Shown here: positions 22,508-56,754 of the stretch, piece after piece
Numbering within the stretch: position 1 is the stretch's first letter
How the letters are laid out: each line of letters opens with the position of its first letter
Assembly (NCBI GenBank): GCA_963726075.1
Contig: CAVSAQ010000002.1
Coordinates: forward strand, 607,868 to 671,867
DNA from: an uncultured Acidobacteriota bacterium
GTDB taxonomy: Bacteria; Acidobacteriota; Blastocatellia; Pyrinomonadales; Pyrinomonadaceae
Direction of reading: 5' to 3'
DNA length: 64,000 bases
The notes under the pieces: model-generated
Told to the model about the DNA's origin: nothing
What the model saw: only the letters and a program-made list of their open reading frames with translations
Database searches by the model: none
Translations under genes and position numbers: made by a program

Positions 22508-22523
22508 CTGTCAAATCTGACAG
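22508..22523. promoter_or_regulatory. CTGTCA-N4-TGACAG palindrome
   Basis: CTGTCAAATCTGACAG; TACCAT (minus strand, 22479..22484) 23 nt beyond, facing the OmpA-family gene. Confidence 0.55.
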
Positions 22524-22713
22524 TATGGGTAGCGACCGAAGGGTGAAGTTGTTTTGCATGTCATCGCTTTGAATGAAACTGGCAGGAGGGCGAGTGGGTT
22601 AAACCTTAGCCGCGAAAGAGCGCTGGAATTCGAGACAATTTCGTCGCGAACGAGCGTCGATTTTGATGCTGTATTCGATCTCAGAGGCTTGGCAAGACTG
22701 TCTCAGCAAATGG

Positions 22714-23343
22714 TTAGCGAAAGGCACTGATAGAAACACTACGATTTAGGATCATGTCGAATTCGGTTCCGGGCTCCACCTCGGCCTCCTGACCTTTCTT
22801 GATGAACCCGCGAGCCGCCCCCACCAGGCCTCCGCTAACCACACCTGATCCGCCGCTAATTAATCCTCCCACCACCATGCCACGGCCAATGAACCGGGCA
22901 TTCCGTTTCTTTGAAGACTTGCCCTTGATTTCGCTTTCATTGTCCGAGGAATCAGAAGCAGCCAGCGACCCGCTGATGGAATAGCTCACGCCGTTCGGAG
23001 TCGTTATCGACGTAAAAGTGACATTGAGGCTGCCGGCCTCGCTCTTGCGGCTGGCGCGTTCGACGTGCGTTACGTGACCGTGAACAATGGCGCCTGCCGG
23101 GATGACTTCCACGCCTTTCACATACACCGGAGTCACCACCGTCGTAATAAACGGACTACCAACCTGAGCTTTTTTTGAAGTAAGTCTGTCGTTCATTCGC
23201 AGACGAATAATCGTGTCGGCCGCCACTGTGTACTTTGGGGTCTTGCGTTTTGCCTGGCCTGCGCCCGCGATCGTGACCGTTGTTAACATCGATGCGATTA
23301 ACGGCGTGAGCAACAGACACTTGAAGATGTTATTTCGCTGCAT
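22714..23343 (-). CDS. secreted hypothetical protein with C-terminal glycine-zipper region
   Basis: Signal peptide from Met at 23343 (RBS GGGAGG); GGLISGGSGVVSGGLVGAA near C-terminus. Confidence 0.5.
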   Translation of the reverse strand: MQRNNIFKCLLLTPLIASMLTTVTIAGAGQAKRKTPKYTVAADTIIRLRMNDRLTSKKAQVGSPFITTVVTPVYVKGVEVIPAGAIVHGHVTHVERASRKSEAGSLNVTFTSITTPNGVSYSISGSLAASDSSDNESEIKGKSSKKRNARFIGRGMVVGGLISGGSGVVSGGLVGAARGFIKKGQEAEVEPGTEFDMILNRSVSISAFR

Positions 23344-23416
23344 CGAGCCTCCCACCGAGCGATCAGGAATAATCAAATTGGTGGGTAACGATAGCTTGGG
23401 GTGTGGGCGCCGCGCC

Positions 23417-23432
23417 CTGTCAAAAGTACCAG
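23417..23432. promoter_or_regulatory. CTGTCA-N4-TGACAG-type palindrome between divergent genes
   Basis: CTGTCAAAAGTACCAG; TAAACT 23 nt to the right and TATCGT (minus) 23 nt to the left. Confidence 0.5.
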
Positions 23433-23564
23433 TTCGCGGTGTTTAGAGTCGCGCGTAAACTCTGCCAGACAGTGTCCGAAAGGACTGCTGGGAAACAACG
23501 TGCTGGCCTTAGAGGCAAAAATCATCGGACAGAACCCGTCGTTGATAAGAACCAGGAGTCGGCT

Positions 23565-24095
23565 ATGAAACTACGATTCGCTTTGGTATTGCTTTCCGTG
23601 CTGATCGCATTCTCCTCGCCGCAAATTCTTGCGCAAGAGACAAACGATGCGACCGAAACCGCGGAGAGACTTCGCGGACAAATGAGTCAAGTACAGAATG
23701 ACGAGGCTGAGTTGAAAATTCGGCTGGAGCAGATCACTTTTGACCTAAGACCCGAGAATATCGAACGCCACTTTGCGGGGTACGGGTCGACTCGCCCAGA
23801 GGAACTGCGCGAAGGGCGTCGCCGGAAACTTCAACTGGAAAAAGACCGGGTTCAGTCGTTACTGACTGAATTGGATGGACGCCGGCAGCGTTTGGAATCA
23901 GCAATCGCAGCGGCTGATGCGAAGGTTTATCAGCAGAGTGCGCTTGGAGCGGTATCACTCCAATCCGATCCAGAACGGCAAGCGCGATTTTTCACAGCCA
24001 CACGCATGCTGGCGGGCGGCGTGATCGTTTTGCTTCTGATCGGCGGGGTTTTGCTGCTCTTCGCCGCGCGAAAACGGCGACAGTTGGCCGCCTAA
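23565..24095 (+). CDS. secreted coiled-coil protein with C-terminal TM anchor
   Basis: Signal peptide MKLRFALVLLSVLIAFSSPQILAQ, coiled coil, C-terminal hydrophobic segment plus KRRQ. Confidence 0.5.
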   Translation: MKLRFALVLLSVLIAFSSPQILAQETNDATETAERLRGQMSQVQNDEAELKIRLEQITFDLRPENIERHFAGYGSTRPEELREGRRRKLQLEKDRVQSLLTELDGRRQRLESAIAAADAKVYQQSALGAVSLQSDPERQARFFTATRMLAGGVIVLLLIGGVLLLFAARKRRQLAA

Positions 24096-24220
24096 CCTTT
24101 CTTTAAGTTGGCCTGATCGATTCTTCAGAAGTTGCGGCTAATTACTCAATACTGACGAACACTGTCGAACCTAACACTCGTGCGACTTTGCGAGCGTCCT
24201 GGTCACTGGTTTTGCTCAGC

Positions 24221-24236
24221 CTGTAAAAACTGACAG
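24221..24236. promoter_or_regulatory. CTGTCA-N4-TGACAG-type palindrome
   Basis: CTGTAAAAACTGACAG; TAAATT at 24261..24266, 24 nt beyond; upstream of 24311. Confidence 0.5.
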
Positions 24237-24310
24237 TTACCGCCGCCGCGGACTGATCGCTAAATTCACTCACCCCGGATCAGAATTCTGAAAGGAAGAA
24301 GGTGTTAGCG

Positions 24311-24889
24311 ATGAAGCGTATGGGACTCTTTCACATCTTAGCGATGGCCGCAGTGTTGGCGTTGTGGTGTGTGTCGGCGACAGCGCAGGAGATCAAGTTT
24401 AATTTCATGCCCGGGACCGATTTTTCGAAATACCGCACCTATAAGTGGGTGCGCGTTCCGAAAGCCGAATATCCCAATCAAATCCTCGATACGCAAATTA
24501 TGCAGGCCATCGACGCCCAGCTGTCTATAAAAGGCCTGGCCAAGACCGACGGCGAAGCTCCGGATCTCTATGTCGCGTACCAAGCGGCGGTAAACCAGGA
24601 GAAGCAATGGAATTCGTACAGTACTGACATGGGCGGGTTTGGCTATGGCCGATGGGGCGGCTGGGGAGGATATGGCGGCGGTATGTCAACCACGACTACC
24701 ACGAGTGAGACGATAAATATTGGCACCTTGAATGTAGACATCTACGATGTGGCCGCGAAGAACCAGATTTGGCGCGGCGCGGCGACCAAGACGCTCGGTT
24801 CGGGCAAAGATCCATCCAAAGTCCAGAGGAACATTAATAAGGCCATGGAGAAACTTTTCAAGAAATATCCTCCCCCAGCGAAGAATTAA
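24311..24889 (+). CDS. DUF4136-like secreted/lipoprotein with Gly/Trp-rich insert
   Basis: Signal peptide; FSKYRTYKW and DLYV motifs typical of DUF4136; GGFGYGRWGGWGGYGGG insert. Confidence 0.55.
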   Translation: MKRMGLFHILAMAAVLALWCVSATAQEIKFNFMPGTDFSKYRTYKWVRVPKAEYPNQILDTQIMQAIDAQLSIKGLAKTDGEAPDLYVAYQAAVNQEKQWNSYSTDMGGFGYGRWGGWGGYGGGMSTTTTTSETINIGTLNVDIYDVAAKNQIWRGAATKTLGSGKDPSKVQRNINKAMEKLFKKYPPPAKN

Positions 24890-25028
24890 GTCGGTTGTGT
24901 GGCCGTTCGTGGAAGACAGCCGGCCAGGGCTCGATGACGGCAGCCGCAAGTGGCTGATCCTGTTGTTGTCGCTACTCCAACAGGCGACCGTCAGGCCGCT
25001 CAACTCTTTCGTTGGACTTGCTGCGACC

Positions 25029-27308: not shown

Positions 27309-27508
27309 TCCTAAAAACCGGCAGTTAACACCGCGCGGGCAAGCGCAGCCAAGACCAAACTGGGCTTAACGCAAAGGAACGCGGAGAAGTTGGTGTAGAC
27401 ATTAGTTCCTCAGAAATTTTTTTGTCATCACCCGACCGCGGTAATGCCGGTTTTCGATCGGAAGGGTATTAGATCGTAAGGCGGATTCCGAGCCTGAGAC
27501 CTTGAGCT

Positions 27509-28207
27509 TCATCGAGTCGGATTTCCTTCCGGACCGTGCCGGTGCGGTGGATGCCGATGAAAGGCCGAAACGCACCTTTTCGCCTGGAGTAATTGCCTGA
27601 GCCTCATGCGAGCCCGATGAAGTTGCGACTTGGAGGTTCCGATCGAGCAGCCGAGCAGATTCGCAATCTCATCATGTCTATGACCTTCGATAACGAAAAG
27701 AACGAACACAGATCGGCAACCAGGAGCCAATTGGGCGAGGGCTGATTTTAAAGCTACGCGGTCGACAAGTTGCGCATTAGACAACCGCTGGTTCCGGGCG
27801 AAAACCGCATCACTTGCATCATCAATCATCTGGAGCTCTCTGCGGATCGTAGGACTCCGAAAATGCATCAGCACCAGATTTGCAGTAAGACGGTGCAGCC
27901 AGGTAGTGAAGCGACTGTCGCCTCGAAATGTCCCGATCTTGCGCAGCAGATGAATGAAAACTTCCTGCGTTAAGTCCTCAGCATCGGCTCCATTTCGCGT
28001 CATACGCAAAGCGAGTGCGTAAACTCGCCCGCGGTGACGGCTATATAATTCTCCGAGCGCGCTGGTTGATCCCTTCGCTGCCGCGCGCGCCAGGAGGTAA
28101 TCTGAATCATTCAGATGTTCAGGCGTTAAGACCACGCCGTACCGCCCGTGCATGAGAGCAGTGTTCGCGGCTGGGTTGGTTTGAATTGTCTGTAAGCTTC
28201 CGCTCAT
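27509..28207 (-). CDS. ECF-type RNA polymerase sigma factor
   Basis: Region 2 (DAEDLTQEVFIHLLRKIGTFRGDSRFTTWLHRLTAN) and region 4 HTH (HDEIANLLGCSIGTSKSQLHRAR). Confidence 0.85.
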   Translation of the reverse strand: MSGSLQTIQTNPAANTALMHGRYGVVLTPEHLNDSDYLLARAAAKGSTSALGELYSRHRGRVYALALRMTRNGADAEDLTQEVFIHLLRKIGTFRGDSRFTTWLHRLTANLVLMHFRSPTIRRELQMIDDASDAVFARNQRLSNAQLVDRVALKSALAQLAPGCRSVFVLFVIEGHRHDEIANLLGCSIGTSKSQLHRARMRLRQLLQAKRCVSAFHRHPPHRHGPEGNPTR

Positions 28208-28853: not shown

Positions 28854-28899
28854 CTGAAAGACCCTAATTGTATGTAAGGCACGGAAAGGCGAGCAGGCA

Positions 28900-28915
28900 C
28901 TGTCAGTTTTGACAG
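28900..28915. promoter_or_regulatory. CTGTCA-N4-TGACAG palindrome (consensus copy)
   Basis: CTGTCAGTTTTGACAG; TACGAT 28939..28944 23 nt to the right (porin operon); TACATA (minus) 23 nt to the left. Confidence 0.6.
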
Positions 28916-29005
28916 TTACTTGCTCTGGATCACGTCGTTACGATTCCGCGTGTTGACAGGCTCCTTGTCCGGCAAATGGTCGGAGCAAATGTCGAAGGAG
29001 GTTAG

Positions 29006-30467
29006 ATGAAAATCAGACATCAGTCGCAGCGGTTGAAGGTCGTCGGCTCAATGCTCATTGGAATCGTTTTGCTGGCTCCTGGCGGCACGTTGATAGCTCA
29101 ATCACCGGACCCGCAAAAGCCTTCTCCGGCGAGCCCGGAAGTACAGCAGCTCAAAGATCGAGTGCTGCAGCTCGAGGAAACGGTCAAGCTGCTCAAGGCC
29201 CAGGTTGAGTCCGTGAACTCGCAAAAGACACCTGATGTGGCGATCGGCGAGAAGGTCGCGTCGCCTGCGACTACGTCGGCCGCTACGGATGCGGTGAACG
29301 CTCCAGCGACCACGGCAAAACCTGACGACCCGCCGGGCGAGAGCACCTTCACGATTTATGGATTTGCGATGCTCGATTCGGGTTACCAATTCAAGCAAAA
29401 CCATCCGGATTGGTTCGACGTGGTCCGTCCAACTAAGTTGCCATCGTTTTCAGATGAGTTTGCGCCTAACGGCAACACGTTTTTTGGTGTCAGACAGAGC
29501 CGGCTCGGTGTTAAGTCGTCGACACCAACCAAATACGGCGAACTAAAAACTCAATTTGAGTTCGAATTGTTTGGCACCGGTGCGGACGCAGGGCAAACGA
29601 CTTTCCGCTTGCGCCACGCTTGGGGAGAGTTGGGCCAATTCGGCGGCGGCCAGCATAACAGCACCTTCATGGACGGCGATGTGTTTCCAAACACGATCGA
29701 GTATTGGGGACCAAACGGAATGGTTCTGTTCCGGAACGTGCAGTTTCGTTGGATGCCAATGAAGGGACGCAACGCCTTAAACATTGCTCTGGAGCGACCA
29801 GGCGCCAGCGCCGACCAGGGCCGGTTTGTAGATCGCATCGAGCTACAGGGTGTGCGGCCGCACAACAGACTGCCAGACCTTACCGCGAATTTTCGAATGA
29901 CTCGCGACTGGGGTCATTTCCAGGTGGCGGGCCTCCTAAAGCGGATGGCATGGATCGACACGATTGCTGACGACGTTGATTTGGACGGCAGCGCCGTTGG
30001 TGCGGGACTCAACCTGACTTCCGCAGTCAAGTTTGGCGAGAACTCCACGGGAAAGTTTGCCGTTCGTTTTTGGCCAGGGAATCCAAAACTACATGAACGA
30101 TGCGGATGTTGACGTTGGCATCGAGACGAATCTTGCGGCTGGAGATCCTCGACGTCCGATCGTTGGTAAGGCGTTACCGATGTGGAGCTTTATCGCTTAT
30201 CTGGACCACAACTGGAACAAGCGCTTCAGCTCATCCTTCGGATATTCAATGATGGATGTCGACAACTCCAACGGTCAGGCACCCGACGCATACCGGCGCG
30301 GCCACTACGCTTCGGGCAACCTGCTTTTCTACCCGGTCGACAACACCATGCTGGGCGGTGAATTCATCTGGGGTCGTCGGGAAAACTTCCTGGACGGCTT
30401 CAAATCAGACGACTTTCGAATTCAATTCTCGTTCAAGTACAACTTTTCGAAAGAGTTTAAGTTCTGA
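29006..30467 (+). pseudogene. DcaP-like coiled-coil porin interrupted by a frameshift in the T5 run at 30067..30071
   Basis: ORF 29006..30112 and ORF 30033..30467 are in different frames; the barrel sequence continues ...STGKFAV/VFGQGIQNYMND...; ends FKF. Confidence 0.65.
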
Positions 30468-30528
30468 AACGGATCGCTCGCTACTCGGAGCGAGCTAATC
30501 ACCCGACTTTGTGAAGGAGAAATACGCA

Positions 30529-31587
30529 ATGTTGAGACGAAGATTCAGTTCAAAGATCGCCGTGATGCTGTTCATCACGATCCTGTCTACGGTGCCGTTC
30601 TCTGTTTCGGGACAGAAAGCCAGTCCGGTAGCGCCTAATCGTGCTCAGGTTGAGACGGTGATTAAGGAGGCTTACGAAAAGTTTCGCAGCGATACCAGCG
30701 GGAAGAACGCCGACTACATTCCGTTTCTGGCGCAGGTGGATTCAAAGATGTTCGGAGTCGCCGTCGTCAGTACTGATAAGCAGGCAGTATCGGTCGGCGA
30801 GGTCAATTATTCCTTCTCGATCCAGTCAATCTCCAAAGTCTTCACGTTGGCGTTGGCGATGGAGGAACTGGGAGCAGCCCGCGTCTTTGAGCGCATCGGC
30901 AGCGAACCCACGGGGCGAGCTTTCAACTCAGTGCCGGCCGTGGTTGACATGCAAACGCACACAGGTAATCCGCTGGTAAACGCGGGCGCCATTGCCACCA
31001 CCAGTCTTATCTCAGGCAAAGACGCTAACGAAAAGTGGAACAAGATTCTCGACTTCTACAGCCGCGCGGCCGGCGAAAAACTCACGCTCATCGATGAAGT
31101 CTATAAATCCGAGGCCGCGACAAACGCGGGCAATAAGGCGCTCTCCATGCTGCTTGCGAAATACGAACGCATCTATGCCGACCCGTTTGAGTCCGTCGAC
31201 ATTTACACGAAGCAATGCTCGGTCGGAGTGAATGTGATCCAGCTCGCGCGCATGGGCGCGACGCTGGCGAACAATGGCAAGAACCCGCTGACCGGTGAAC
31301 AGGTAATCAAGCCTGAGAACGTTCCTTACATTCTTTCAGCCATGACGATGGCCGGCTTGTATGACGGCTCGGGAGGATGGGCCTGGAAAGTTGGCCTGCC
31401 TGCAAAAAGCGGCGTGGGCGGCGGCATAGTTGCAGTCGTCCCGGGCAAAGGCGCGATCGCGGTTTTCTCGCCCCGGCTCGACGAAGCCGGTAACAGCGTC
31501 AAGGCGCAGAGAGTAATCGAATACGTGGCTGACAAGCTCGACTTCAATTTGTTCTCGCCACGCTCTGTTGGATTGAAGGGCGAATAA
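30529..31587 (+). CDS. glsA: glutaminase A with N-terminal signal peptide
   Basis: Serine-beta-lactamase-like glutaminase motifs (IQSISKVFTLALAME, NAGAI, VGGGIVAVVPG); RBS GAAGGAGA. Confidence 0.85.
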   Translation: MLRRRFSSKIAVMLFITILSTVPFSVSGQKASPVAPNRAQVETVIKEAYEKFRSDTSGKNADYIPFLAQVDSKMFGVAVVSTDKQAVSVGEVNYSFSIQSISKVFTLALAMEELGAARVFERIGSEPTGRAFNSVPAVVDMQTHTGNPLVNAGAIATTSLISGKDANEKWNKILDFYSRAAGEKLTLIDEVYKSEAATNAGNKALSMLLAKYERIYADPFESVDIYTKQCSVGVNVIQLARMGATLANNGKNPLTGEQVIKPENVPYILSAMTMAGLYDGSGGWAWKVGLPAKSGVGGGIVAVVPGKGAIAVFSPRLDEAGNSVKAQRVIEYVADKLDFNLFSPRSVGLKGE

Positions 31588-34343: not shown

Positions 34344-34435
34344 AGTTCAGAGTACAAAGCTTTAGCTTGCTAGTTTCAGGCAACAGCCCGCGGGCTGGAC
34401 TCTGAACGATGGGCCGGAAAGTCAGGAGGCTTGAA

Positions 34436-36025: not shown

Positions 36026-36053
36026 GCAAAGCATGGGAAAGGAGAGAAGAAAA

Positions 36054-37606: not shown

Positions 37607-37622
37607 CTGTCAGTTTTGACAG
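37607..37622. promoter_or_regulatory. CTGTCA-N4-TGACAG palindrome (consensus copy)
   Basis: CTGTCAGTTTTGACAG; TACAAT 37646..37651 23 nt beyond; 77 nt upstream of sdaA. Confidence 0.6.
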
Positions 37623-37699
37623 TGGTTCGCTGAATCTCACCCATCTACAATTTTCAATCGGCGAATGCGATCAACAGCTCATTTTGCAAAGGAGTAGCG

Positions 37700-41379: not shown

Positions 41380-41459
41380 TGGAGTCTCCTTTGGCAATTG
41401 TTTGGTTACGTGGCAGGGAGCCATGCGGAAAGCCTAGAGCAGACCGAGTCGCTTGTTCA

Positions 41460-41475
41460 CTGTCAATTCTTACAG
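41460..41475. promoter_or_regulatory. CTGTCA-N4-TGACAG-type palindrome
   Basis: CTGTCAATTCTTACAG; TAGGCT (minus, 41431..41436) 23 nt beyond, facing the gene at 41379. Confidence 0.5.
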
Positions 41476-41523: not shown

Positions 41524-41539
41524 CTGTCAGTTTTGACAG
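41524..41539. promoter_or_regulatory. CTGTCA-N4-TGACAG palindrome (consensus copy)
   Basis: CTGTCAGTTTTGACAG; TAGGGT 41562..41567 22 nt beyond; upstream of porin 41591. Confidence 0.6.
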
Positions 41540-41590
41540 TTTTGCGTTGCTTCAAAAGGAATAGGGTAGAACCGCCCACGCGAGTCAATC

Positions 41591-43421: not shown

Positions 43422-43437
43422 CTGTCAGTTTTGCCAG
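43422..43437. promoter_or_regulatory. CTGTCA-N4-TGACAG-type palindrome
   Basis: CTGTCAGTTTTGCCAG; TAGAGT 43462..43467 24 nt beyond; upstream of MFS-pta-ackA-pflBA. Confidence 0.55.
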
Positions 43438-43494
43438 TGTGTTGCATTGCTGCGAAGGCAATAGAGTAGTTGGCCGGGAAGATGAGAGATTTCT

Positions 43495-45758: not shown

Positions 45759-47047
45759 ACGCGGGCTCATCGAGCCTGAAGTTCTGCGTGTTTCAGCGGC
45801 CAAGCGGAGGGAATTGGCGGTTGGAGGCGCAGGGCCAGATCGAGGGCATTGGCACATCGGCCCGATTGTCTGTCAAGGGCGCCAATGGTGAGCGGCTGGC
45901 TCATCAGCAGCTCGCTCACTCTGTACGTGACGGACGTGATGCGATCGATGCCCTCGCTCGCTGGCTTGGATCCAAATATGGCGGCGCGCGAGTGCTCGCG
46001 GTTGGCCATCGCGTTGTCCACGGGGGCACACGCTTTGCCGCGCCCACGATTGTGAACCAGAAGGTAATAGAAAATCTTCACGATCTAATTCCACTCGCTC
46101 CTTTGCATCAGCCTTACAACCTCGCCGCTATTGAAGCTGTCTCTGAACGGCTTCCTGGCGTTCCGCAAGTTGGCTGTTTCGACACCAGTTTTCATCGCGG
46201 CCATGCCCGCGTGACTGACCTAATTCCGCTACCACGTGCAATCTGTAAGTCGGGTGTGGAACGCTACGGCTTTCACGGCATCTCGTACGAATACATCGCT
46301 TCGATCCTGCCAGAGGTCGCGCCCGAGATCGCAAACGGAAGAGTAATCGTGGCGCATCTCGGCAGCGGCGCCAGTCTCTGCGCGCTGAAGGATGGGAAGA
46401 GCGTTGACACGACCATGGGTTTCACGGCCGTTGATGGGTTGTGCATGGGAACGCGGCCGGGAGCAATCGATCCGGGTGTCGTCCTTTTTCTTTTTCAAAC
46501 GCTCGGCCTCTCCGCCAAAGAAGTCGAGACAATCCTCTACAGGAGGTCCGGCCTGCTGGCGATTTCCGAAATCAGTAATGACATGCGCGACCTGTTGGTG
46601 AGGACCGAACCCAAAGCGCGTCTCGCGGTGGACTACTTCGTCTATCGCGCCGCGAAAGAGATCGGGGCGCTGACAGCCGCGCTCGGCGGCGTTGATGCGG
46701 TGGTGTTCACCGCAGGCATCGGCGAGAACTCACCCGAGATCCGACGACGGATCTGTGAAGCATCCGCATGGTTGGGAATGGAACTTAGCGAAGACGCAAA
46801 CGCCAACAACGCCACGCGAATTTCTAAACCGGAGAGCAAGGTTTCGGTTTGGATGATCCCGACAAATGAAGAACTGATGATCGCCCGACATACGGGAAGA
46901 CTTCTGGGATTAAATTCTCGGGCACAGAGAAGGCAGCGTAAGGAGAAACGAAGATGGCCAGTGCAAAAGCAGAAATTGCAATTGAACGCGATCAAGCGAG
47001 AAAGCCGTGGGCGGGATTCCAACCCGGTCTCTGGCAAAAGGAAATAA
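45734..47047 (+). CDS. ackA: acetate kinase (with unusual basic C-terminal extension overlapping pflB)
   Basis: [43 protein letters not shown]; the ORF runs about 40 codons past the usual family end. Confidence 0.85.
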
Positions 47048-49218
47048 ACGTTCGCGACTTCATCCAGCAGAACTTTACTCCGTACGAAGGAGATGATTCC
47101 TTTCTCGCCCCGGCAACTGAGAGAACCACGAATCTTTGGGCTCGGCTCAGCGAATTGTTTCTCGAGGAACGCAAAAAAGGTGTGCTCGACGTCTCACAAA
47201 TTCCCACTTCGATCACCGCGCACGCACCCGGCTACATCGATCGCCAAAACGAAGTCATCGTCGGTCTGCAAACCGAAGCTCCTTTGAAGCGCGCCATCAT
47301 GCCCAATGGCGGCTTCCGCATGATCGTGAATGCGCTAAAGACGTACGGATACGAGCCGGACCCGCAGGTCGTTGAAACCTTTACTAAGTATCGTAAAACG
47401 CACAATGACGGGGTGTTCGATGCCTACACAGACGACATTCGGCGCTGTCGGAGCTCACATATTCTTACGGGCCTGCCGGACGCCTACGGCCGCGGGCGCA
47501 TCATTGGTGATTACCGGCGGGTGGCGCTCTATGGGGTAGCGCGCTTGATTGAACAAAAGCAGGAAGAGAAGCGCAGTCTCGACTCCGCAATGTCCACCGA
47601 AGACATTATTCGCGACCGCGAGGAGCTGAGCGAACAAATTCGCTCACTCAAAGAATTGCAGCAGATGGCGGTGAGTTATGGTTTTGATATTTCCATTCCG
47701 GCGAGCAACGCAAAGGAAGCTGTGCAGTGGCTTTACCTTGGCTATCTCGCGGCAGTGAAGGAACAAAATGGAGCAGCGATGTCGCTGGGCCGTACTTCGA
47801 CGTTTCTCGACATCTATTTCCAGCGCGATCTCGAGGCCGGTACGCTGACGGAAGAACAGGTACAAGAGATCATCGATGACTTTGTCATCAAGTTGCGCAT
47901 TGTGCGGTTTCTGCGAACGCCCGAATATGACGACTTGTTTGCGGGCGATCCAACCTGGGTTACCGAATCGATCGCCGGCATGGGCGACGATGGTCGGCCG
48001 CTAGTGACGAAGAGCAGCTTTCGCTTTCTCCACACGCTCTACAACCTCGGTCCGGCGCCAGAACCGAACATGACGATCTGGTATTCACCGCGCTTGCCGG
48101 ATGGATTTCGTAGTTACTCAGCAAAGGTGGCGATCGAAACCAGCTCAATTCAATTCGAGAGCGATGAAATCATGCGACGCGAGTGGGGTGACGACGGCGC
48201 CGTGGCGTGCTGCGTCTCGCCAATGTTAATGGGCAAGCAAATGCAGTTCTTTGGAGCGCGTGCGAACCTCGCGAAGTGCCTTCTTTATGCAATCAACGGC
48301 GGCCGCGACGAAATCACCGGAGATCAGGTGGGGCCGGTAATAGTCGAGGTAGAAGGCGACTACCTGGACTTCGACGACGTGCTGGACCGGTTCGAGCAGA
48401 TGATGGATTGGCTCGCCCGCGTTTACGTTAACGCGATGAACGTGATCCATTACATGCATGACAAGTATGCCTACGAGCGACTCAAGATGGCCCTGCATGA
48501 CTATGCGCCGTTGCGGACGATGGCCTTCGGCATGGCCGGCATGTCGGTGGTTGCTGACAGTCTTTCGGCAATTCGTTACGCAAAGGTGAAAGTGATTCGC
48601 GACGACACGGGATTAGTCACTGATTACAAAACGGAAGGTGAGTTTCCGCACTTCGGTAATAACGACAATCGCGTTGACCATCTCGCCGCTTGGCTGGTGA
48701 CGACCTTCATGGGCAAGCTGCGAAAGCACCCCACCTACCGTAACGCTCTCCACACCCAGTCAATTCTGACTATTACCTCGAACGTCGTGTACGGCAAGAA
48801 CACCGGCAATACGCCTGATGGGCGGCGACGCGGAGAACCATTTGCTCCCGGCGCCAATCCGATGCACGGACGCGACGTGCACGGAATTCAGGCATCGGCG
48901 GCTTCGGTGGCCAAGATTCCTTACCGCGATGCTGCGGATGGAATTTCTTTAACGACGACGCTGGTGCCGGAAGGTCTTGGACGAGTAATCGCTGAGCGGA
49001 TCACGAATCTCCGCAGCATGCTCGATGCGTTCTTCAGCATTACGGGCTATCACATGAACGTGAATGTCCTCAATCGCGAGATGCTTTTATATGCCATGGA
49101 TCATCCCGAGAAGTATCCGCACCTGACGATTCGTGTCTCGGGTTACGCGGTTAACTTTGTACGTCTGACCCGCGAGCAGCAACTGGATGTAGTCAACCGA
49201 ACCTTCCATGGAATGTAA
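46954..49218 (+). CDS. pflB: pyruvate formate-lyase (formate C-acetyltransferase)
   Basis: Active-site VACCVSPM and glycyl-radical motif [11 protein letters not shown]; N-terminus [25 protein letters not shown]. Confidence 0.95.
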
Positions 49219-49344
49219 GACATGCGCGCTGCACGGCTCGTACAACCGAATTCGATAGAAGGCGCCAGCCCGTATGAGCTTCGCGTGGATCAAGCCGCAG
49301 GGGTTTCGGAGTCAGCAGTGAAGACGGCTTTGGAAACTGGAGAC

Positions 49345-50067
49345 ATGGGCTTCCTGCATTCATTCACCACTGGCTCTACGGTGGACGGGCCCGGCGTGCG
49401 TGTGGTGGGTTGGACTGCCGGGTGTCAGTTTCGCTGCCTTTACTGTCACAACCCGGACACGTGGAAAATGCTGAACGGCATGCCTGTAACGGTGGAGCGG
49501 GCCGTTCAGTCGATCAACAAATATCGTCATAGCCTGAGAATCATGTCGGGAGGATTCACGTTGAGCGGTGGCGAACCGCTAATGCAAGACCGGTTCGCGA
49601 TTAGATTGTTTACCGCCGTCAAGGCGCTGGGCATCCATACCGCGCTGGACACGAATGGTTTTCTTGGCGAGCGGCTTTCGGACGAAGAGTTGGACCAAAT
49701 CGATTTGGTTCTGCTGGACATCAAGGCCTGGGACGCGGAACGACATCGCGCGCTGACCGGAAAGGACGTCGGTCCAACACTGGACTTCGCCCGCCGCCTG
49801 GCTGACGGTAACCGGCCGATTTGGCTTCGCTTCGTCCTGGTTCCCGGTTTGACTGACGACGATGAGAATGTCACCTCGATCGCGAAGTTCGCCGGTGAAT
49901 TAGGCAACGTCCGGAGGGTGGACGTGCTCCCGTTCCATCAGATGGGCCGATTCAAGTGGAAGAAGCTCGAGCTCGACTACGCGCTTAACAGCATAGAGCC
50001 TCCATCGCGACATGCGGTCGCGCGAGCTTGTGCTCAGTTTCAAGCCGAGGGGCTCGCAGCGTATTGA
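49345..50067 (+). CDS. pflA: pyruvate formate-lyase activating enzyme (ORF open from 49222; Met 49345 matches the family N-terminus)
   Basis: GFLHSFTTGSTVDGPGVR and CQFRCLYCHNPDTW radical-SAM cluster motif. Confidence 0.9.
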   Translation: MGFLHSFTTGSTVDGPGVRVVGWTAGCQFRCLYCHNPDTWKMLNGMPVTVERAVQSINKYRHSLRIMSGGFTLSGGEPLMQDRFAIRLFTAVKALGIHTALDTNGFLGERLSDEELDQIDLVLLDIKAWDAERHRALTGKDVGPTLDFARRLADGNRPIWLRFVLVPGLTDDDENVTSIAKFAGELGNVRRVDVLPFHQMGRFKWKKLELDYALNSIEPPSRHAVARACAQFQAEGLAAY

Positions 50068-50183: not shown

Positions 50184-51314
50184 ATGAATCACACATCGAC
50201 AATGCAGATTTCGGCTCCGCTGACCAAGGCGCTGAAAAGTCCGATCAATTGGTTCTTGATCTTTGTTCTGATCAGCGTCGTGTTAGATCACGCCGGACAC
50301 GTCCCGGCGCCGTTGATCTTCTTTTCAGCAGCTTTAGCAATTATGCCGATTGCCGCGATGATCGTGCGGGCCACCGAACAGTTGGCCACGCGCACCGGCG
50401 ATGCGGTGGGTGGGTTGCTGAACGCCACCTTCGGCAACGCACCGGAGTTGATTATTTCGCTGGTGGCACTCAGAACCGGCTATTTGGACATGGTGCGTGC
50501 TTCGCTGGTCGGTGCGATTCTCGCCAACTTATTGCTCGCTCTGGGTGTCGCATTCTTAACGGGCGGCCTTCGTTTTCACGATCAGCGATTCAATCCAAAC
50601 GCGGCGCGTACCTACAGCACGATGATGTTTCTCGCCGCGATTAGCATGACCGTGCCCAGCGCCTTCAGCCGAGTCTTCGCCAGTGAAGTTGTGATCCGGC
50701 AAGAACAAATCTTGAATGTGGGCATCGCCGGGTTGTTGCTAGCGGCTTATGGATTGTACGTACTGTACTCGCTAAAGACCCACTCCAGCGCGTTCGCCAG
50801 CATGGAAACCGCACCGGGATCGAGTCACGAAGGAGAGCAATGGGGACTGCCGCGAGCCATCGGGACTCTAATTTTTGCATCGGTGCTGGCTGCGTGGATG
50901 AGTGAGATTTTGGTCGGTGCGGCGGAAGAAACCGGAAAGGCTCTTGGCATGACGCAGATTTTCATCGGCATCGTTTTTATCGCCGTTGTTGGCGGCGCGG
51001 CTGAGAGTGGTTCCGCGGTGGCAATGGCGCGCAAGAATAAGATGGATCTGTCGGTGGGAATCGCGCTGGGAAGCTGCATACAGATCGCCCTATTCGTAGC
51101 GCCCTTGCTGGTGCTGGCGAGTTACTTCATTGCACCACAGCCCTTGGATCTTTCATTTAGCCGAGCAGAGATCGGCTCGCTCTTCATGGCGGTGCTAATT
51201 GGCGCCATGGTCAGCGGCGACGGGCAGTCGAATTGGTACAAGGGTGTTCAGTTGATCACGGTGTACGCGATTATCGCACTGATGTTTTATCTGATGCCCG
51301 AATTGCCGAAGTGA
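50184..51314 (+). CDS. Ca2+/H+ exchanger (CaCA family)
   Basis: Two alpha-repeats (GNAPELI and GGAAESGSAV) in an 11-TM-like protein. Confidence 0.8.
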   Translation: MNHTSTMQISAPLTKALKSPINWFLIFVLISVVLDHAGHVPAPLIFFSAALAIMPIAAMIVRATEQLATRTGDAVGGLLNATFGNAPELIISLVALRTGYLDMVRASLVGAILANLLLALGVAFLTGGLRFHDQRFNPNAARTYSTMMFLAAISMTVPSAFSRVFASEVVIRQEQILNVGIAGLLLAAYGLYVLYSLKTHSSAFASMETAPGSSHEGEQWGLPRAIGTLIFASVLAAWMSEILVGAAEETGKALGMTQIFIGIVFIAVVGGAAESGSAVAMARKNKMDLSVGIALGSCIQIALFVAPLLVLASYFIAPQPLDLSFSRAEIGSLFMAVLIGAMVSGDGQSNWYKGVQLITVYAIIALMFYLMPELPK

Positions 51315-51369: not shown

Positions 51370-51385
51370 CTGTCAATACTGACAG
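51370..51385. promoter_or_regulatory. CTGTCA-N4-TGACAG palindrome
   Basis: CTGTCAATACTGACAG; upstream of 51493; only a CATCAT hexamer at the 23-nt position. Confidence 0.5.
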
Positions 51386-51492
51386 TACTTCTGACCTCAC
51401 GAATCTTTCATCATTCAATCGCAGAACCAACTGAAAAAGCTTGTGTTCGTGAGGTCTCGCACCATCAAGACTTGCCTTCAACTGAAAGGAAG

Positions 51493-52458: not shown

Positions 52459-52482
52459 TTTTTGAATAAGGAGAGAAGGGAA

Positions 52483-53061
52483 ATGCGAAAGTTGATGAGA
52501 ACAAGCCTGTTGATTGCCGGTATGTTGAGCTCGATACTGGTGACAACCCCGGCAACTTCCGCTCAGAAACTACCGAAGCGCATTCACATTCAGGCGCAGG
52601 CGATGGGAACGTCCACGCAGTTGGGCCGATCCGTAAGTGTGAACCTCATCATCGAGGAGATAACGACGGACGAAGAAAGAGCCGGCATGCTCGAAGCGTT
52701 CCAGCAGAAAGGCAATGAGGGTTTGGTTAACGCTCTGGACAAGATGAAGAGTAAAGGGCGCATGGCGATCACCGGCACCCTGGGCTACGACGTCAATTAC
52801 GTCAAAATATTTCCGCAACCGGACGGCACGACCCTGTTGCGCATGGTAACGGATCGCCCGCTGTTGTTTGGCGAAGTCTGGGCCAGTACCAGGTCGGCCG
52901 ATTACGAACTGGCAGGAGTGGAAATCGTTATCAGTAAAGACAAGAAGAAGCATACCGGCACACTTTATCCTGCCTGTAAGTTCAAGATAAACAAAAAGAA
53001 TGAACTGGAGCTGGAGCTCTTTCAGAACCCATGGAAACTCGTGAACATCATGAAGCGTTAA
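52483..53061 (+). CDS. secreted hypothetical protein
   Basis: Signal peptide MRKLMRTSLLIAGMLSSILVTTPATSAQ; RBS AAGGAGAGAAGGG. Confidence 0.5.
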   Translation: MRKLMRTSLLIAGMLSSILVTTPATSAQKLPKRIHIQAQAMGTSTQLGRSVSVNLIIEEITTDEERAGMLEAFQQKGNEGLVNALDKMKSKGRMAITGTLGYDVNYVKIFPQPDGTTLLRMVTDRPLLFGEVWASTRSADYELAGVEIVISKDKKKHTGTLYPACKFKINKKNELELELFQNPWKLVNIMKR

Positions 53062-53121
53062 GCTTCGAGGAGTGTTTGCGTGCGGACACGCCGGCCCGGC
53101 GACAATCATGAAGGTGAACTT

Positions 53122-54024
53122 ATGACGGACAAGTTATCAGAGCTCGATGGCCCCTACGCGCAATCTGATGATCAACTTCCGGAATCTTTTTCAGCAGCGC
53201 TAACTGTTGACTTATTCGCGATCTCAGATCCCGGGCATGTGAAGAGTAATAACGAAGATCATTATCTGGTCGCGCGCATCGGAAGAGCTTTAGAAGTGCA
53301 GTTCAGCAATCTGCAGGAAAATTCGCCCGGTCTCAAAATCGACGAGTCAGGTTATGCCATGGTCGTGGCTGACGGGGTAGGTGGACAGCCTGCGGGCGAG
53401 ATTGCCAGCAGTCAGGCGATCTTTACGCTGCTTAGCCTGGCGTTACGTACGCCTGATTGGCAATTCCGGTGGCGCCCGAGAGAAATCAACGAAGTAATGT
53501 GGCGCGCGCAAGATCGTTTCCAGCGGGTCAATGAGGCCCTGCTTCAGGAAGCGACTGCGCATTCCGCGCTTAGTGGAATGTGCACGACCTTGACCGTGGC
53601 GTTGTCCTACGGGAAAGATCTCGTCATCTCCCATGTGGGTGATTCGCGCGTCTATCAACTGCATGATGGAAAGCTGAAGTGTTTGACGCGCGATCACACG
53701 GTGGCCGCTCAACTGCTGGATGAAGGCGCCATCGCCAGCGACGACCCACTGATTACCAAACTGGACAATGCTTTGCTTCAGGCAGTGGGCAGCGGGGAAA
53801 GTGACTTGAGACCCGACGTGAACCACCACGAACTGGAAGCTGGCGACCAGCTATTGGTGTGCTCGGATGGTCTTACGAATATGGTTGACGATGGCCTGAT
53901 CGCGTCTGTCTTAAACGAGTCGAGGTCGGCCGAACGGGCTTGCCGCACTCTGCTTGACCTCGCGTTGGCTAACGGTGGCTTAGACAACATAACACTGATC
54001 GTCGCGCGTTATTCGATCCCATAG
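53122..54024 (+). CDS. PP2C-family Ser/Thr protein phosphatase
   Basis: VVADGVGGQPAGE, HVGDSR, LLVCSDGL, GGLDNITLIV motifs. Confidence 0.8.
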   Translation: MTDKLSELDGPYAQSDDQLPESFSAALTVDLFAISDPGHVKSNNEDHYLVARIGRALEVQFSNLQENSPGLKIDESGYAMVVADGVGGQPAGEIASSQAIFTLLSLALRTPDWQFRWRPREINEVMWRAQDRFQRVNEALLQEATAHSALSGMCTTLTVALSYGKDLVISHVGDSRVYQLHDGKLKCLTRDHTVAAQLLDEGAIASDDPLITKLDNALLQAVGSGESDLRPDVNHHELEAGDQLLVCSDGLTNMVDDGLIASVLNESRSAERACRTLLDLALANGGLDNITLIVARYSIP

Positions 54025-54136
54025 CGGTGCTTACCGCCGTGAACGCGAAAAAAGCCTAATCGGCTGCTTCAGACTTACAATTTAGAGAGACCGCCGAGTT
54101 CTTCAAGAAAATATTCAGGCCATTCAGCGGCACATT

Positions 54137-55306
54137 TTAGGTTTTTGCAACTACCTGACCCAGTTCAATAGCCTCGTCTTTTGACACTACCGGATCCGAG
54201 TTTGGATGCTCGGTGACCCACATCATAAAGACCTGATGTCCAATCGCGAACAACGTCGCGCCGACAAACATTCCCAGGATTCCGCCGCTAGCCATCCCAC
54301 CTAACGCGCCGAGCAAGATTACCGGCATTGGTACATCCACGCCGCGACCCAGCATCATTGGTTTCAAAATGTTGTCCGCAATGCCGGTCACCAGCAAGAG
54401 AATGGTATGTATGATCGCCGCGGCCGTACCGTAGTGACCGCTCGACCAGATGTAAATGATTGCGGGAAGCGTGATGATTAGCGCCGGCACTTGGGCAATG
54501 CAAAGGACGAGCGCAATGACCGCCAGAACACCCGCCGCCGGTACGCCCGCAAGCAGCAGCGCCAATCCAATGAGCGTTGCTTGAAGGAAAGCGACGCCGA
54601 TAACGCCTGATGCGACTGCGCGGATGGTTGCCGTCGTTAGCTTGAAGAGTTTCTCGCCTCTGGTGTTACCGGCAACACGAACGAAAACCCCTCGACTAAC
54701 GCCGGCTCCTGATTCGCCGTAGGCCATCAGGATGCCGGCAACAACGAAGGAGATCAAAAACAGTAACAGGCCGGTGCCAATGCTTGCGACCATGCCAAGT
54801 GCTTTCTGGGCCAGTTGGCCAATCTTCGGCTGCAGGCTCCGCACAAATCCGGGCAGGTCCGCATGAGCTTTTGACCAGGCGTCGTGAAGCCGCTTGCCGA
54901 CCACCGGCCAATTCTCAACGCCTGCTCGCGGCGGGGGAATCGCCAGTTTGTCCTGCTGCGCGGCGCCGATGAAATGACGAGTTGAGTCGGCAAAGGAATT
55001 CATCAGCAATGCCACTGGCGTGATGATCAACAAGAGTCCAACGATAATCAGAATAGCCGAGGCCAAGCCTTGTTTTCTGCCAATCCTGCTCGCGAACCGT
55101 TGATGCAACGGATACAAGGTGACCGCCAGGATGATCGACCAGACCGTCAGCGTCAGGAATGGCGAAAAGATCTGGTAGCACAGCACGGCCAGCGCGCCAA
55201 TCAAAACGATTCGAATCAACACATCCATCAGTGGGATGGATGCTCTCGTGGCAGTGGGTTCCGTGGCGGCCGATGCTCGGGACGCCACTCTTCGCACAGC
55301 TTCCAT
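54137..55306 (-). CDS. AI-2E family (PerM-like) transporter
   Basis: Multi-TM protein with a typical AI-2E C-terminal half (ILLGALGGMASGGILGMFVG); RBS AAGGTGAG before Met 55306. Confidence 0.75.
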   Translation of the reverse strand: MEAVRRVASRASAATEPTATRASIPLMDVLIRIVLIGALAVLCYQIFSPFLTLTVWSIILAVTLYPLHQRFASRIGRKQGLASAILIIVGLLLIITPVALLMNSFADSTRHFIGAAQQDKLAIPPPRAGVENWPVVGKRLHDAWSKAHADLPGFVRSLQPKIGQLAQKALGMVASIGTGLLLFLISFVVAGILMAYGESGAGVSRGVFVRVAGNTRGEKLFKLTTATIRAVASGVIGVAFLQATLIGLALLLAGVPAAGVLAVIALVLCIAQVPALIITLPAIIYIWSSGHYGTAAAIIHTILLLVTGIADNILKPMMLGRGVDVPMPVILLGALGGMASGGILGMFVGATLFAIGHQVFMMWVTEHPNSDPVVSKDEAIELGQVVAKT

Positions 55307-55424
55307 TTTTGGCTCACCTTCAGCAAGCATGAAAATTAAGCACTGGGTTGGCCACGGCGTGTCGCGGTGCCAGTGCATGCCAGGGGATTCTGAGTGATTT
55401 TATTGCCTGCTTGAGGGCTGATAA

Positions 55425-55440
55425 CTGTCAGAAATGACAG
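55425..55440. promoter_or_regulatory. CTGTCA-N4-TGACAG palindrome
   Basis: CTGTCAGAAATGACAG; TAAAAT (minus, 55397..55402) 22 nt beyond, facing the AI-2E gene. Confidence 0.55.
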
Positions 55441-55564
55441 GAAGGCTTACATCTATTCGAGCAACCAAACTTTGTTGGCAGGCGCAAAAAGAATTACCGA
55501 TTCGACAAATTAGACTTCCAGCGGCTGTCCACCGGGAGCGGGTAACTCTTTCCGGCACCACACG

Positions 55565-55580
55565 CTGTAAAAACTAACAG
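55565..55580. promoter_or_regulatory. CTGTCA-N4-TGACAG-type palindrome
   Basis: CTGTAAAAACTAACAG; TACGGT 55604..55609 23 nt beyond, facing the BASS transporter gene. Confidence 0.45.
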
Positions 55581-55755
55581 TATCAACAGACGGCCAGGCC
55601 TTCTACGGTAATCCTTCTCGGCGCAGAAAGATCCGAGGCGTGACCCCGCTCTGCAGAGGTATGACTTACGGGGAATGGCGGAAGAGCTTAGTACGAATGA
55701 CATCGCAGATGTCATGCATACTCGATGGTCTTGGAAGGTGCCACGGTAAACGCTT

Positions 55756-56622
55756 ATGGAACTAATGCAGAAAGCAACCTCGATCGTCACGTTAATCTTT
55801 GTGCTCTCCAGCATGCTGGGGATGGGTCTGGGTCTCACGGTCAGTCAAATCATCAGCCCGCTTCGCAATGTCCGGTTGGTAGTGCTGGCCCTGCTGGCAA
55901 ATTTTGTGTTGATGCCACTTGCCGCCCTTGGCCTCGCCACCCTGTTGCGGCTCGACCCACCGCTGGGCGTGGGTCTGCTGGTATTGGGGACGGCAGCCGG
56001 CGCGCCGTTCCTGCCGAAATTGGCCCAGCTCGCCAAGGGCAACCTGGCCTTCGGGGTGGGCTTGATGGTGCTGCTGATGATCGTCACGGTGGGCTATCTG
56101 CCGCTCGTCCTGCCGCTTTTGCTGCCGGGCGTTTCAGTCAACCCCGTGAAGATTGCGAGCTCACTATTTCTGTTTATGTTGGTTCCGTTGGCGCTCGGGC
56201 TGGCTGCAAAAGCTTGGTTCGCGGTTGCCGCCGCGCGCACAAAACCCGTGCTCGATAAGGTCTCCAACCTGAGCCTCATTTTGCTGATGTTGCTGATCAC
56301 CGTAGCCAACATCAAGAGCGTGCTGGCCGTCTTCGGTACGCGCGGCATCCTCGCCGGTCTCCTCTTCATTGCTGTGGGTTTTGGCGTAGGGTGGTTGCTC
56401 GGCGGACCAGGCCGGGACACGCGGCCGGTCCTGGCCCTGGGCACAGCGCAACGCAACATTGCCGCCGCGCTTGTGGTAGGCGGTCAAAGTTTTAGTGACC
56501 CGAAAGTTGTCGTCATGGTGATTGTCGTCGCCATCGTTGGGCTTCTGGTTCTGATGCCGTTGTCCAAAGCCCTGGGCCGGCGAACACCTGCCCCTGCGGA
56601 AGGTGCCTTAGTTGGCCCGTGA
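55756..56622 (+). CDS. bile acid:sodium symporter (BASS/SBF-like) family transporter
   Basis: Multi-TM protein with SBF-like motifs (LLALLANFVLMPL, LGTAAGAP). Confidence 0.75.
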   Translation: MELMQKATSIVTLIFVLSSMLGMGLGLTVSQIISPLRNVRLVVLALLANFVLMPLAALGLATLLRLDPPLGVGLLVLGTAAGAPFLPKLAQLAKGNLAFGVGLMVLLMIVTVGYLPLVLPLLLPGVSVNPVKIASSLFLFMLVPLALGLAAKAWFAVAAARTKPVLDKVSNLSLILLMLLITVANIKSVLAVFGTRGILAGLLFIAVGFGVGWLLGGPGRDTRPVLALGTAQRNIAAALVVGGQSFSDPKVVVMVIVVAIVGLLVLMPLSKALGRRTPAPAEGALVGP

Positions 56623-56738
56623 GAAGCCACTTCTCCACATTCCTGCGGTTGCCGAGGCTTTCGCGTGGGAATCACGTTCAGCGTTGAGCAACTGACAAGG
56701 CAGGGAGCGATGAACTGAACGCCGTCTCGTGCGAATCC

Positions 56739-56754
56739 CTGTCAAAAGTGCCAG
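56739..56754. promoter_or_regulatory. CTGTCA-N4-TGACAG-type palindrome
   Basis: CTGTCAAAAGTGCCAG; TAGCAT 56779..56784 24 nt beyond; upstream of the paralogue pair/DyP cluster. Confidence 0.5.

Follow-up and report, generated by a model that had tools for sequence, protein, structure and literature searches.

A recurrent palindrome at fixed distance from -10-like hexamers as the probable operator of a dimeric class II-type activator in Acidobacteriota and Nitrospirota

The 64-kb stretch of DNA analysed here (54% G+C; the window in what follows) carries between its genes a recurrent palindrome, CTGTCA-N4-TGACAG (CTGTCANNNNTGACAG), and the question that this locus raises is what kind of element the palindrome represents and which protein reads it. 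On balance, the palindrome is probably the operator of a dimeric activator that defines a class of promoters, the most likely protein being an uncharacterised family of NarL/FixJ response regulators to which we refer by its recognition helix, RTVAFHKY. Taken separately, the assignment of the palindrome as a class II-type activator operator is very likely, and as to the RTVAFHKY family being the activator we lean towards it with modest confidence.

The content of the window was compared with that of 100 dinucleotide-preserving shuffles of the same DNA. Exact copies of CTGTCANNNNTGACAG occurred six times in the window and 0.00 times in the shuffles, and copies with up to two mismatches occurred 13 times against 1.99 ± 1.31. 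A first-pass annotation had listed thirteen intergenic copies, of which 12 were retained, including the three identical ones (CTGTCAGTTTTGACAG) at 28900, 37607 and 41524, whereas the copy at 12711 was dropped because its sequence (GTGTCAGAAAGACCAG) has three mismatches and no correctly spaced hexamer. An additional, unlisted copy with one mismatch at 4802 lies within coding sequence, lacks a hexamer and is probably a chance match. That copy aside, the palindrome is missing from the first 22 kb and the last 7 kb of the window, and all 12 retained sites are intergenic and fall within 22.5-56.8 kb. At 11 of them a TANNNT hexamer lies 22-24 nucleotides (nt) away in at least one direction; the remaining site, 51370, has CATCAT at 23 nt, and the site at 23417 has a hexamer 23 nt away on either side. 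The hexamer coordinates given earlier for both strands were all reproduced, with offsets of 22-24 nt. By our own estimate a TANNNT would fall at one of these three offsets in about 3% of directions, and 11 of 12 sites with a correctly spaced hexamer cannot be chance.

Gene calls were crude throughout, which applies to all figures on gene context. The non-coding fraction of the window (12.8%) holds 8 of 11 window sites (p = 8e-6), the three that were scored as coding being the real coding copy at 4802 and sites overrun by open reading frames (ORFs) crudely extended to upstream TTG or GTG starts. In related loci, 39 of 48 non-seed sites were intergenic (p = 2e-22), and the intergenic enrichment that had been proposed as a check was therefore found in the window as well as outside it. 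The window has about 30 transcription units and 12 sites. A site is present within 400 nt upstream of 30% of the window genes that have a free upstream region, and of 44% of such genes in related loci.

Related loci were obtained by searching for the exact 17-mer CTGTCAGTTTTGACAGT in a set of genomes with a single representative of each GTDB species, which yielded at least 117 loci. Promoter architecture was then analysed in two sets, the first consisting of the window and the Acidobacteriota loci (119 sites, 238 flank directions) and the second of 80 metagenome loci without taxonomic label that had been chosen by protein and not by motif (158 sites). In the first set, TANNNT was found at offset 23 in 58 of the 238 flank directions, at 22 in 7 and at 24 in 14, compared with about 2 at any other offset. 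Measured from the first base of the hexamer, the dyad centre is thus 31 ± 1 bp upstream in 58+7+14 of the 119 sites. The second set replicated this distribution, with 14, 65 and 32 hexamers at offsets 22, 23 and 24, about 2 elsewhere, and the same position of the dyad centre in 111 of 158 sites. The fixed spacing to a -10-like hexamer originally seen in the window, 23 ± 1 nt, thus holds in both of these independent sets. Nitrospirota loci showed the same geometry at 11 of 18 sites, most of the remaining ones having a correctly placed TA. The 79 distinct promoters of the first set, oriented on the hexamer, gave the consensus layout (A/C)CTGTCA-RWWT-TGACAGT(T/A)-N21-TANNNT.

All 61 occurrences of TGACAG-N23-TANNNT carry a distal half with no more than two mismatches from CTGTCA, so the functional unit is the dyad and not the half-site, in agreement with the dimer-type site suggested in the first-pass annotation. 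Oriented by the -10 hexamer, the proximal half has 0, 1 and 2 mismatches at 70, 35 and 6 sites, and the distal half at 50, 40 and 21; the earlier statement that variation is found mainly in the right half is true in plus-strand notation, but after orientation it is the proximal half that is better conserved. On the promoter side only, T17 (73 of 79) and W18 (71 of 79) are conserved as well. With a 17-bp spacer, these are the two leading bases of a -35 hexamer whose remaining positions are random, with an information content of at most 0.21 bits at positions 19-22. The -35 hexamers had been called poor, and indeed just this T-W is kept, while the TTGACA of the palindrome, at 24 bp before TANNNT, is as far from the hexamer as had been noted and too distant to serve as a -35 box. 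Outside positions 0-18 and the hexamer, information is close to 0 (positions -29 to -1 and 19 to 39 of a 116-nt frame).

Exact seeds showed an orientation bias, GTTTTGACAGT facing the promoter in a ratio of about 30:6. A long ORF begins downstream of 118 of the 125 oriented sites, at a median distance of 60 nt. Palindromes with hexamers on both sides that face divergent genes were found at 23417 in the window, at 456, 2582 and 2618 in L002, at 2565 in L009 and at 7444 in L097. As regards proxies for start sites, none of five tRNA genes compared (ARAGORN) lies directly downstream of a motif promoter, and Rfam produced no RNA family match in the window and 10 loci.

A required dyad, a fixed distance to the -10 hexamer, a degenerate -35 region and use in either direction together form the signature of a symmetric dimeric class II activator. 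If the hexamer occupies -12 to -7, the dyad centre would be placed at about -43.5 and the site would abut the -35 position. From the motif, its geometry, its conservation and its linkage to genes we infer activation, contacts with RNA polymerase, the identity of the protein and a signal to which it responds. An activator dimer bound to the palindrome would recruit RNA polymerase from about -43.5 in the class II manner, and its promoter-proximal subunit, in contact with sigma region 4 and with the alpha subunit, would stand in for the usual -35 interaction. The protein bound to the operator ACTGTCAGTTTTGACAGT would be the RTVAFHKY response regulator, which would also control its own gene and that of a companion receiver-only protein. 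Owing to its symmetry, a single palindrome can serve a pair of divergent promoters. The half-site TTGACA is identical to the sigma-70 -35 consensus, and GerE-type domains cross-match the model of sigma region 4 (Sigma70_r4_2 is matched by 9 downstream proteins), which suggests that the regulator may read DNA much like sigma region 4 does.

In kind, such an element would be the operator of a response-regulator-type class II activator, a known class, and by analogy its operation may resemble that of activator-dependent promoters of the DosR, LuxR and NtcA classes. In sequence, the GGGACT-NN-AGTCCC-like Dev box is different from the CTGTCA-N4-TGACAG described here. DosR, a member of the NarL family, binds a box centred at -43.5 next to a suboptimal -35 and recruits RNA polymerase via sigma-A region 4 and the C-terminal and N-terminal domains of the alpha subunit (PMC13486717). 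DosR/DevR of Mycobacterium tuberculosis therefore has the same geometry as that proposed here, with a dimer on a dyad box, a good -10 and a protein of the same NarL family as the candidate regulator. However, the Dev regulon comprises about 50 genes, usually with tandem boxes, whereas the palindrome occurs as single boxes in a far larger, multi-phylum regulon, and the candidate regulator is not a DosR orthologue, as no NCBIfam equivalog reaches its cut-off (the best, MctR, scored 131 bits against 300).

Two further systems resemble the palindrome in sequence. The lux box is centred at -42.5 and used in class II manner, and the core of the lasB box (CTGCCAGTTCTGGCAG) differs from the motif at two symmetric positions. 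The lux box itself (ACCTGTAGGATCGTACAGGT) has the outer CTGT...ACAG in common with the motif, and the las and rhl boxes are of the same kind. LuxR-type boxes are palindromes upstream of the promoter that are bound by dimers with GerE/LuxR helix-turn-helix domains (PMC4444344). LuxR-type regulators nevertheless possess an acyl-homoserine-lactone-binding domain and small regulons, whereas the regulator linked to the motif here has a phospho-receiver domain. As for PhoB, its Pho box is made of CTGTCAT direct repeats with an A/T-rich 4-bp spacer and replaces the -35 box. The CTGTCA half-site, the spacer and the substitution of an activator for the -35 are thus shared, but the Pho box is a direct repeat located 10 bp from the -10 and bound by a winged-helix OmpR-family protein, while the repeat described here is inverted and located 23 bp from the -10.

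The candidate operators of the window, with putative -10 hexamers, offsets in nt and predicted target genes, are as follows.

22508..22523, minus strand: exact copy CTGTCAAATCTGACAG; TACCAT at 22479-22484 (minus), offset 23; predicted target, OmpA-family gene 21323-22348 (minus).
23417..23432, both directions: CTGTCAAAAGTACCAG, two mismatches; plus side, TAAACT at 23456-23461, predicted target, exported coiled-coil protein 23403/23565-24095; minus side, TATCGT at 23388-23393, predicted target, exported protein 22714-23376 (minus).
24221..24236, plus strand: CTGTAAAAACTGACAG, one mismatch; TAAATT at 24261-24266, offset 24; predicted targets, DUF4136 lipoprotein 24302-24889 and a HEAT/PQQ-repeat protein ending at 27308.
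28900..28915, plus strand: exact copy CTGTCAGTTTTGACAG; TACGAT at 28939-28944, offset 23; predicted target, DcaP-like porin 29006-30112.
37607..37622, plus strand: exact copy CTGTCAGTTTTGACAG; TACAAT at 37646-37651, offset 23; predicted target, L-serine dehydratase gene sdaA 37700-39361.
41460..41475, minus strand: CTGTCAATTCTTACAG, one mismatch, in the distal half when oriented; TAGGCT at 41431-41436 (minus), offset 23; predicted target, outer-membrane beta-barrel protein 40684-41424 (minus).
41524..41539, plus strand: exact copy CTGTCAGTTTTGACAG; TAGGGT at 41562-41567, offset 22; predicted target, porin-like protein 41591-43330.
43422..43437, plus strand: CTGTCAGTTTTGCCAG, one mismatch; TAGAGT at 43462-43467, offset 24; predicted first target, MFS transporter 43495-44781; further predicted targets, pta 44793-45758, ackA, pflB 46954-49218, pflA 49222-50067 and a cation exchanger 50184-51314.
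51370..51385, plus strand: exact copy CTGTCAATACTGACAG; variant hexamer CATCAT at 51409-51414, offset 23; downstream, an exported protein (probable start 51493, end 52458), an ORF 52462-53061 and a PP2C phosphatase 53080-54024.
55425..55440, minus strand: exact copy CTGTCAGAAATGACAG; TAAAAT at 55397-55402 (minus), offset 22; predicted target, AI-2E family transporter 54137-55378 (minus).
55565..55580, plus strand: CTGTAAAAACTAACAG, two mismatches; TACGGT at 55604-55609, offset 23; predicted target, bile-acid/Na+ symporter-family transporter 55756-56622.
56739..56754, plus strand: CTGTCAAAAGTGCCAG, one mismatch; TAGCAT at 56779-56784, offset 24; predicted targets, tandem paralogues 56801-57385 and 57415-57954.

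The genes for a glutaminase (30511-31587), an amidohydrolase, a DUF3300 and a DUF2950 protein (the last ending at 37031) follow the porin gene on the same strand and probably form one operon with it, and the operator at 56739 probably also drives a cluster that includes a DyP-like gene (59348-60670). On its minus side, the palindrome at 28900 has TACATA at 28876-28881 (minus strand, offset 23), facing an unknown gene followed by an ECF sigma gene (27509-28207, minus strand; span 28726-27509), which makes it a weak candidate for a second promoter. Orthologues of this ECF sigma gene in L002, L009 and L040 have the motif with proper TANNNT hexamers, and the site at 28900 may for this reason act both ways.

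Pfam was searched with the first gene downstream of each of 106 motif promoters. Among the top 25 of the 52 families obtained were Response_reg (13 genes), GerE, the LuxR-type helix-turn-helix (10), the outer-membrane beta-barrel family OMP_b-brl (6), OmpA (5), sulfatase and serine dehydratase (4 each), SpoIIE/PP2C, DUF4136, DcaP-like porin and ECF sigma (3 each), and AI-2E transporter and HisKA_3 kinase (2 each); no family of translation, replication or central biosynthesis was found among these 25. Many other first genes had no Pfam match but did have signal peptides. The regulon would accordingly comprise porins and other outer-membrane proteins, exported unknowns, signalling proteins such as response regulators, HisKA_3 kinases, PP2C phosphatases and an ECF sigma factor, sulfatases, an anaerobic sulfatase maturase, and genes for fermentation and amino-acid catabolism (sdaA, glutaminase, pta-ackA-pflBA). 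The expectation that the motif is conserved upstream of orthologues was borne out for sdaA in six genomes (L002, L009, L019, L071, L092 and L113, loci found through the exact 17-mer), but not for the porin and MFS orthologues in L092, L113 and L009, upstream of which the motif was not found. In these three loci the porin and MFS genes appear to follow sdaA in one unit. Their lack of a motif indicates that membership of the regulon is fluid.

Taxonomy of the 17-mer loci was taken from the titles of metagenome-assembled genomes (MAGs). The matches listed included 60 Acidobacteriota (Terriglobia, Blastocatellia, Pyrinomonadaceae, Chloracidobacterium) and 13 Nitrospirota, the remainder being dispersed in the way expected of chance matches, which we estimate at about 70. 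Further copies with up to two mismatches, seeds excluded, occurred at 2.0 per 10 kb in the Acidobacteriota loci (17 of them exact), at 0.94 in the Nitrospirota loci and at 0.72, none exact, in the other loci; the value for the window, all copies included, is 2.03, and the related DNA sampled ranged from 1 to 4 sites per 10 kb. The window is syntenic with Acidobacteriota loci of the subdivision-4/Pyrinomonadaceae type at 66-83% nucleotide identity. As far as sequence can tell, the regulon appears to be large and conserved across Acidobacteriota and Nitrospirota. One contig, L005, comes from a MAG titled 'uncultured Actinomycetes' and has 66-71% nucleotide identity to the DyP and DUF3300/DUF2950 regions of the window, together with the motif, here with its hexamer 24 nt away; the contig has an acidobacterial appearance, and mis-binning is possible.

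Which protein might bind the palindrome was approached through the genes linked to it. The commonest family downstream is one NarL/FixJ-type response regulator, composed of a receiver domain and a LuxR/GerE helix-turn-helix, which is often found beside a related receiver-only protein and sometimes beside HisKA_3 kinases. By tblastn the family was detected in at least 14 of the 60 seed Acidobacteriota loci, in the Nitrospiraceae locus L053 and in the Phycisphaerales locus L023, both with the motif adjacent, and the Verrucomicrobiae locus L064 has a receiver-only gene like those of the companion family, as assigned by C-terminal similarity read by eye. In both L023 and L064 the sole copy of the motif immediately precedes the receiver-only gene and has TA at offset 23; in L023 this gene adjoins a full-length regulator and in L064 just the receiver-only gene was found. 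A chance match of the 17-mer would not fall at the receiver-only genes of these two loci. In an alignment of 15 members, the recognition helix (P/A)RTVAFHKY is invariant across phyla (T189, H193, K194, Y195). The nearest solved structures are those of VraR, NarL, DesR and DevR (DevR structure 3c3w, E = 6e-17).

In a reverse test, 80 metagenome loci were fetched by the regulator family, 68 of which had enough upstream DNA. The motif was present within 500 nt upstream of the regulator gene in 29 of these 68, compared with about 1 expected by chance, and the regulator-selected loci were the most motif-dense DNA sampled, with 4.2 sites per 10 kb. Two full-length copies of the regulator are found in each of L031, L070 and L094, and L031 has a receiver-only gene in addition. 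A paralogue present in L031 (2858-3514), with orthologues in L106 and in L037, a locus from the cultured Granulicella sp. L46, has a degenerate receiver pocket (LIASDQ for ADDH, LDLGESW for LDxxMP) but a recognition helix that is intact; such a variant might work on this operator independently of phosphorylation. Between the motif promoter and the response-regulator gene there is an unusually long leader, of 230-390 nt, in L031 (5913-6157), L037 (3719-4123), L106 (5403-5666) and L118 (about 3600-4001). No Rfam family was found in the L037 leader, and these long leaders might contain a small ORF or an unknown RNA element.

Several points weigh against this reading of operator and regulator. The first locus set is biased, having been found through the exact 17-mer, the gene calls are crude and the metagenome loci are unlabelled. 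About 30% of sites have no TANNNT at 22-24, the position of -43.5 depends on taking TANNNT as the -10 hexamer, and a repressor or dual role at some sites is conceivable. With regard to the protein, the window contains 12 sites but no gene of the regulator family, and 43% of regulator genes have the motif against 44% of neighbours with a free upstream region in the same loci. The regulator could consequently be a conserved target in motif-rich islands instead of the binding protein, and this comparison lowered our confidence in the assignment. Both observations would suit an alternative in which the operator and the class II mechanism are the same but another dimeric regulator binds, the NarL-type and receiver-only genes being mere members of the regulon. 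We regard this as unlikely, though deserving of real weight, since in L023 and L064 the only motif lies at the receiver-only gene, beside the regulator in the former, which is the usual signature of a self-regulated factor. Moreover, the recognition helix is invariant in the same phyla in which the motif is invariant, and no further DNA-binding family recurs downstream, save for one orthologous group of ECF sigma factors.

The first-pass annotation had compared the site with those of class II activators of the CRP/FNR type, and as far as position is concerned this comparison stood. The proposal that a CRP/FNR-family protein binds the site is, however, improbable. The CRP box is TGTGA-N6-TCACA and the FNR box TTGAT-N4-ATCAA, and CTGTCA half-sites in a 16-bp frame fit neither in sequence nor in spacing. 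At CRP/FNR class II promoters the activator takes the place of the -35 box at the same position relative to the -10, as the dyad described here would do beside a TAN3T-type hexamer. A similar case is NtcA of cyanobacteria, which binds GTAN8TAC centred near -41.5, at a fixed distance from a TAN3T -10 and with no -35 box (PMC3898017). NtcA is likewise a phylum-wide global activator, but it belongs to the CRP family, its half-sites differ, and the centre of the palindrome would be 2 bp further upstream than -41.5. Besides, linkage to CRP/FNR-family genes was not observed: tblastn with Escherichia coli queries, of limited sensitivity, gave 3 hits in 1.32 Mb of motif-rich DNA, all in regulator-selected loci (L123, L125, L127), against dozens of genes of the response-regulator family.

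It is very improbable that the palindrome is a core promoter element recognised directly by RNA polymerase, whether by sigma as a distal -35-like TTGACA or by the two alpha C-terminal domains as an UP-like element. The proximal half does read TTGACA, and in about 30 of 36 seeds it is GTTTTGACAGT that faces the promoter; the span from about -51 to -36 is where UP elements lie; and the element is very frequent in the DNA sampled, where 30-44% of the genes whose upstream region is free have it. Nevertheless, the 24-bp spacer between TTGACA and the -10 is beyond the reach of sigma region 4, established at 17 ± 1 bp, the distal half is always present, and a single site serves both directions. The empty ends of the window, the absence of translation-machinery families from the top 25 target families and of tRNA genes directly behind motif promoters in the loci, and the occurrence in other phyla at the regulator locus only also speak against a core element. 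A housekeeping promoter element was rejected on similar grounds, as the listed families include no translation or replication genes and 30 kb of the window has no site.

A repressor operator, for instance an SOS box of the LexA type, is hardly credible. Every exact copy fits the gammaproteobacterial pattern CTGT-N8-ACAG and the 17-mer also occurs in Pseudomonas and Xanthomonadaceae loci, but the site is separated from the -10 downstream of it by a fixed distance and does not overlap it, the top 25 families of the 106 downstream genes include none of DNA repair, no LexA homologue was found in the 1.32 Mb of loci, and the sites are far too many for an SOS regulon. In sum, the pattern is shared with the gammaproteobacterial LexA box, while position, target genes and site number differ. 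The LexA box reported for Acidobacterium capsulatum is GTTC-N7-GTTC. The gammaproteobacterial copies of the 17-mer belong to Pseudomonas (L004, L041, L074, L103, L104), Lysobacter (L048) and Xanthomonas (L111). Their seeds lack the 23-nt geometry, except for that of L074, which was scored as chance, and L104 has three related copies; these copies fit CTGT-N8-ACAG and could be operators of SOS genes or of prophages.

A dispersed repeat (REP or MITE-like) or chance pattern, for which the three identical 16-mers of the window might speak, is already refuted by the lack of exact copies in the shuffles, by the cross-phylum conservation at fixed distance from the -10 and by flanks that carry no information, conserved flanks having been named at the outset as the mark of such a repeat. 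Sigma-54 promoters were also considered, as two orthologous sites read CTGGCAC-TTTT-GACAG, and were rejected since the consensus lacks the invariant GG of the -24 element.

The first-pass annotation had not recognised a described operator in the palindrome, and likewise no description of the motif or its regulon was found in the 8 million full texts searched, in which subscription journals are thinly covered, so that absence is not proof. That literature also yielded nothing on promoter architecture, start sites, global regulation or a LuxR-type regulon in Acidobacteriota. The Acidobacteriota rank with the most abundant bacteria of soils, and the main nitrite oxidisers belong to the Nitrospirota. 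For these phyla the motif provides a sequence handle on what would be a very large regulon of porins, fermentative enzymes and proteins of the envelope and of signalling. It allows the start sites of hundreds of genes to be predicted, points to one concrete candidate master regulator and might offer a ready-made inducible promoter design for the genetic tools that they lack. What sets the system apart is its density, its conservation in at least two phyla, its bidirectional use and the possible convergence of paralogous regulators on one site, and it would exemplify a single operator that stayed intact across phyla while its regulon expanded.

In a wider interpretation, which we put forward tentatively and consider somewhat unlikely as a whole, at least a tenth of the transcription units of Acidobacteriota and Nitrospirota would have exchanged the -35 box for the palindrome, on which several paralogous regulators with a shared sigma-4-like helix, together with receiver-only partners, would converge. 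A two-component system would in that case do the work of an alternative sigma factor, and might be the missing general switch for stress, stationary phase or hypoxia in these RpoS-less, slow-growing soil phyla, having expanded from a small self-regulated module that is still present in Planctomycetota and Verrucomicrobiota.

Some minor observations were made on genes of the window. The tandem paralogues 56801-57385 and 57415-57954 encode closely similar proteins of about 180-190 amino acids, the first of which has no Pfam match. The DUF3300/DUF2950 pair (34409-37031) ends the same-strand run that follows the porin and glutaminase genes, and the listed start of 35928-37031 crosses a GTG-rich stretch, an internal methionine probably being the true start. 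Finally, an ABC1 atypical-kinase domain is split over the overlapping ORFs 3223-3807 (N-terminal part) and 3779-4867 (C-terminal part), which represents a frameshifted pseudogene or a sequencing error, and an intact ABC1 paralogue adjoins it (4864-6462).

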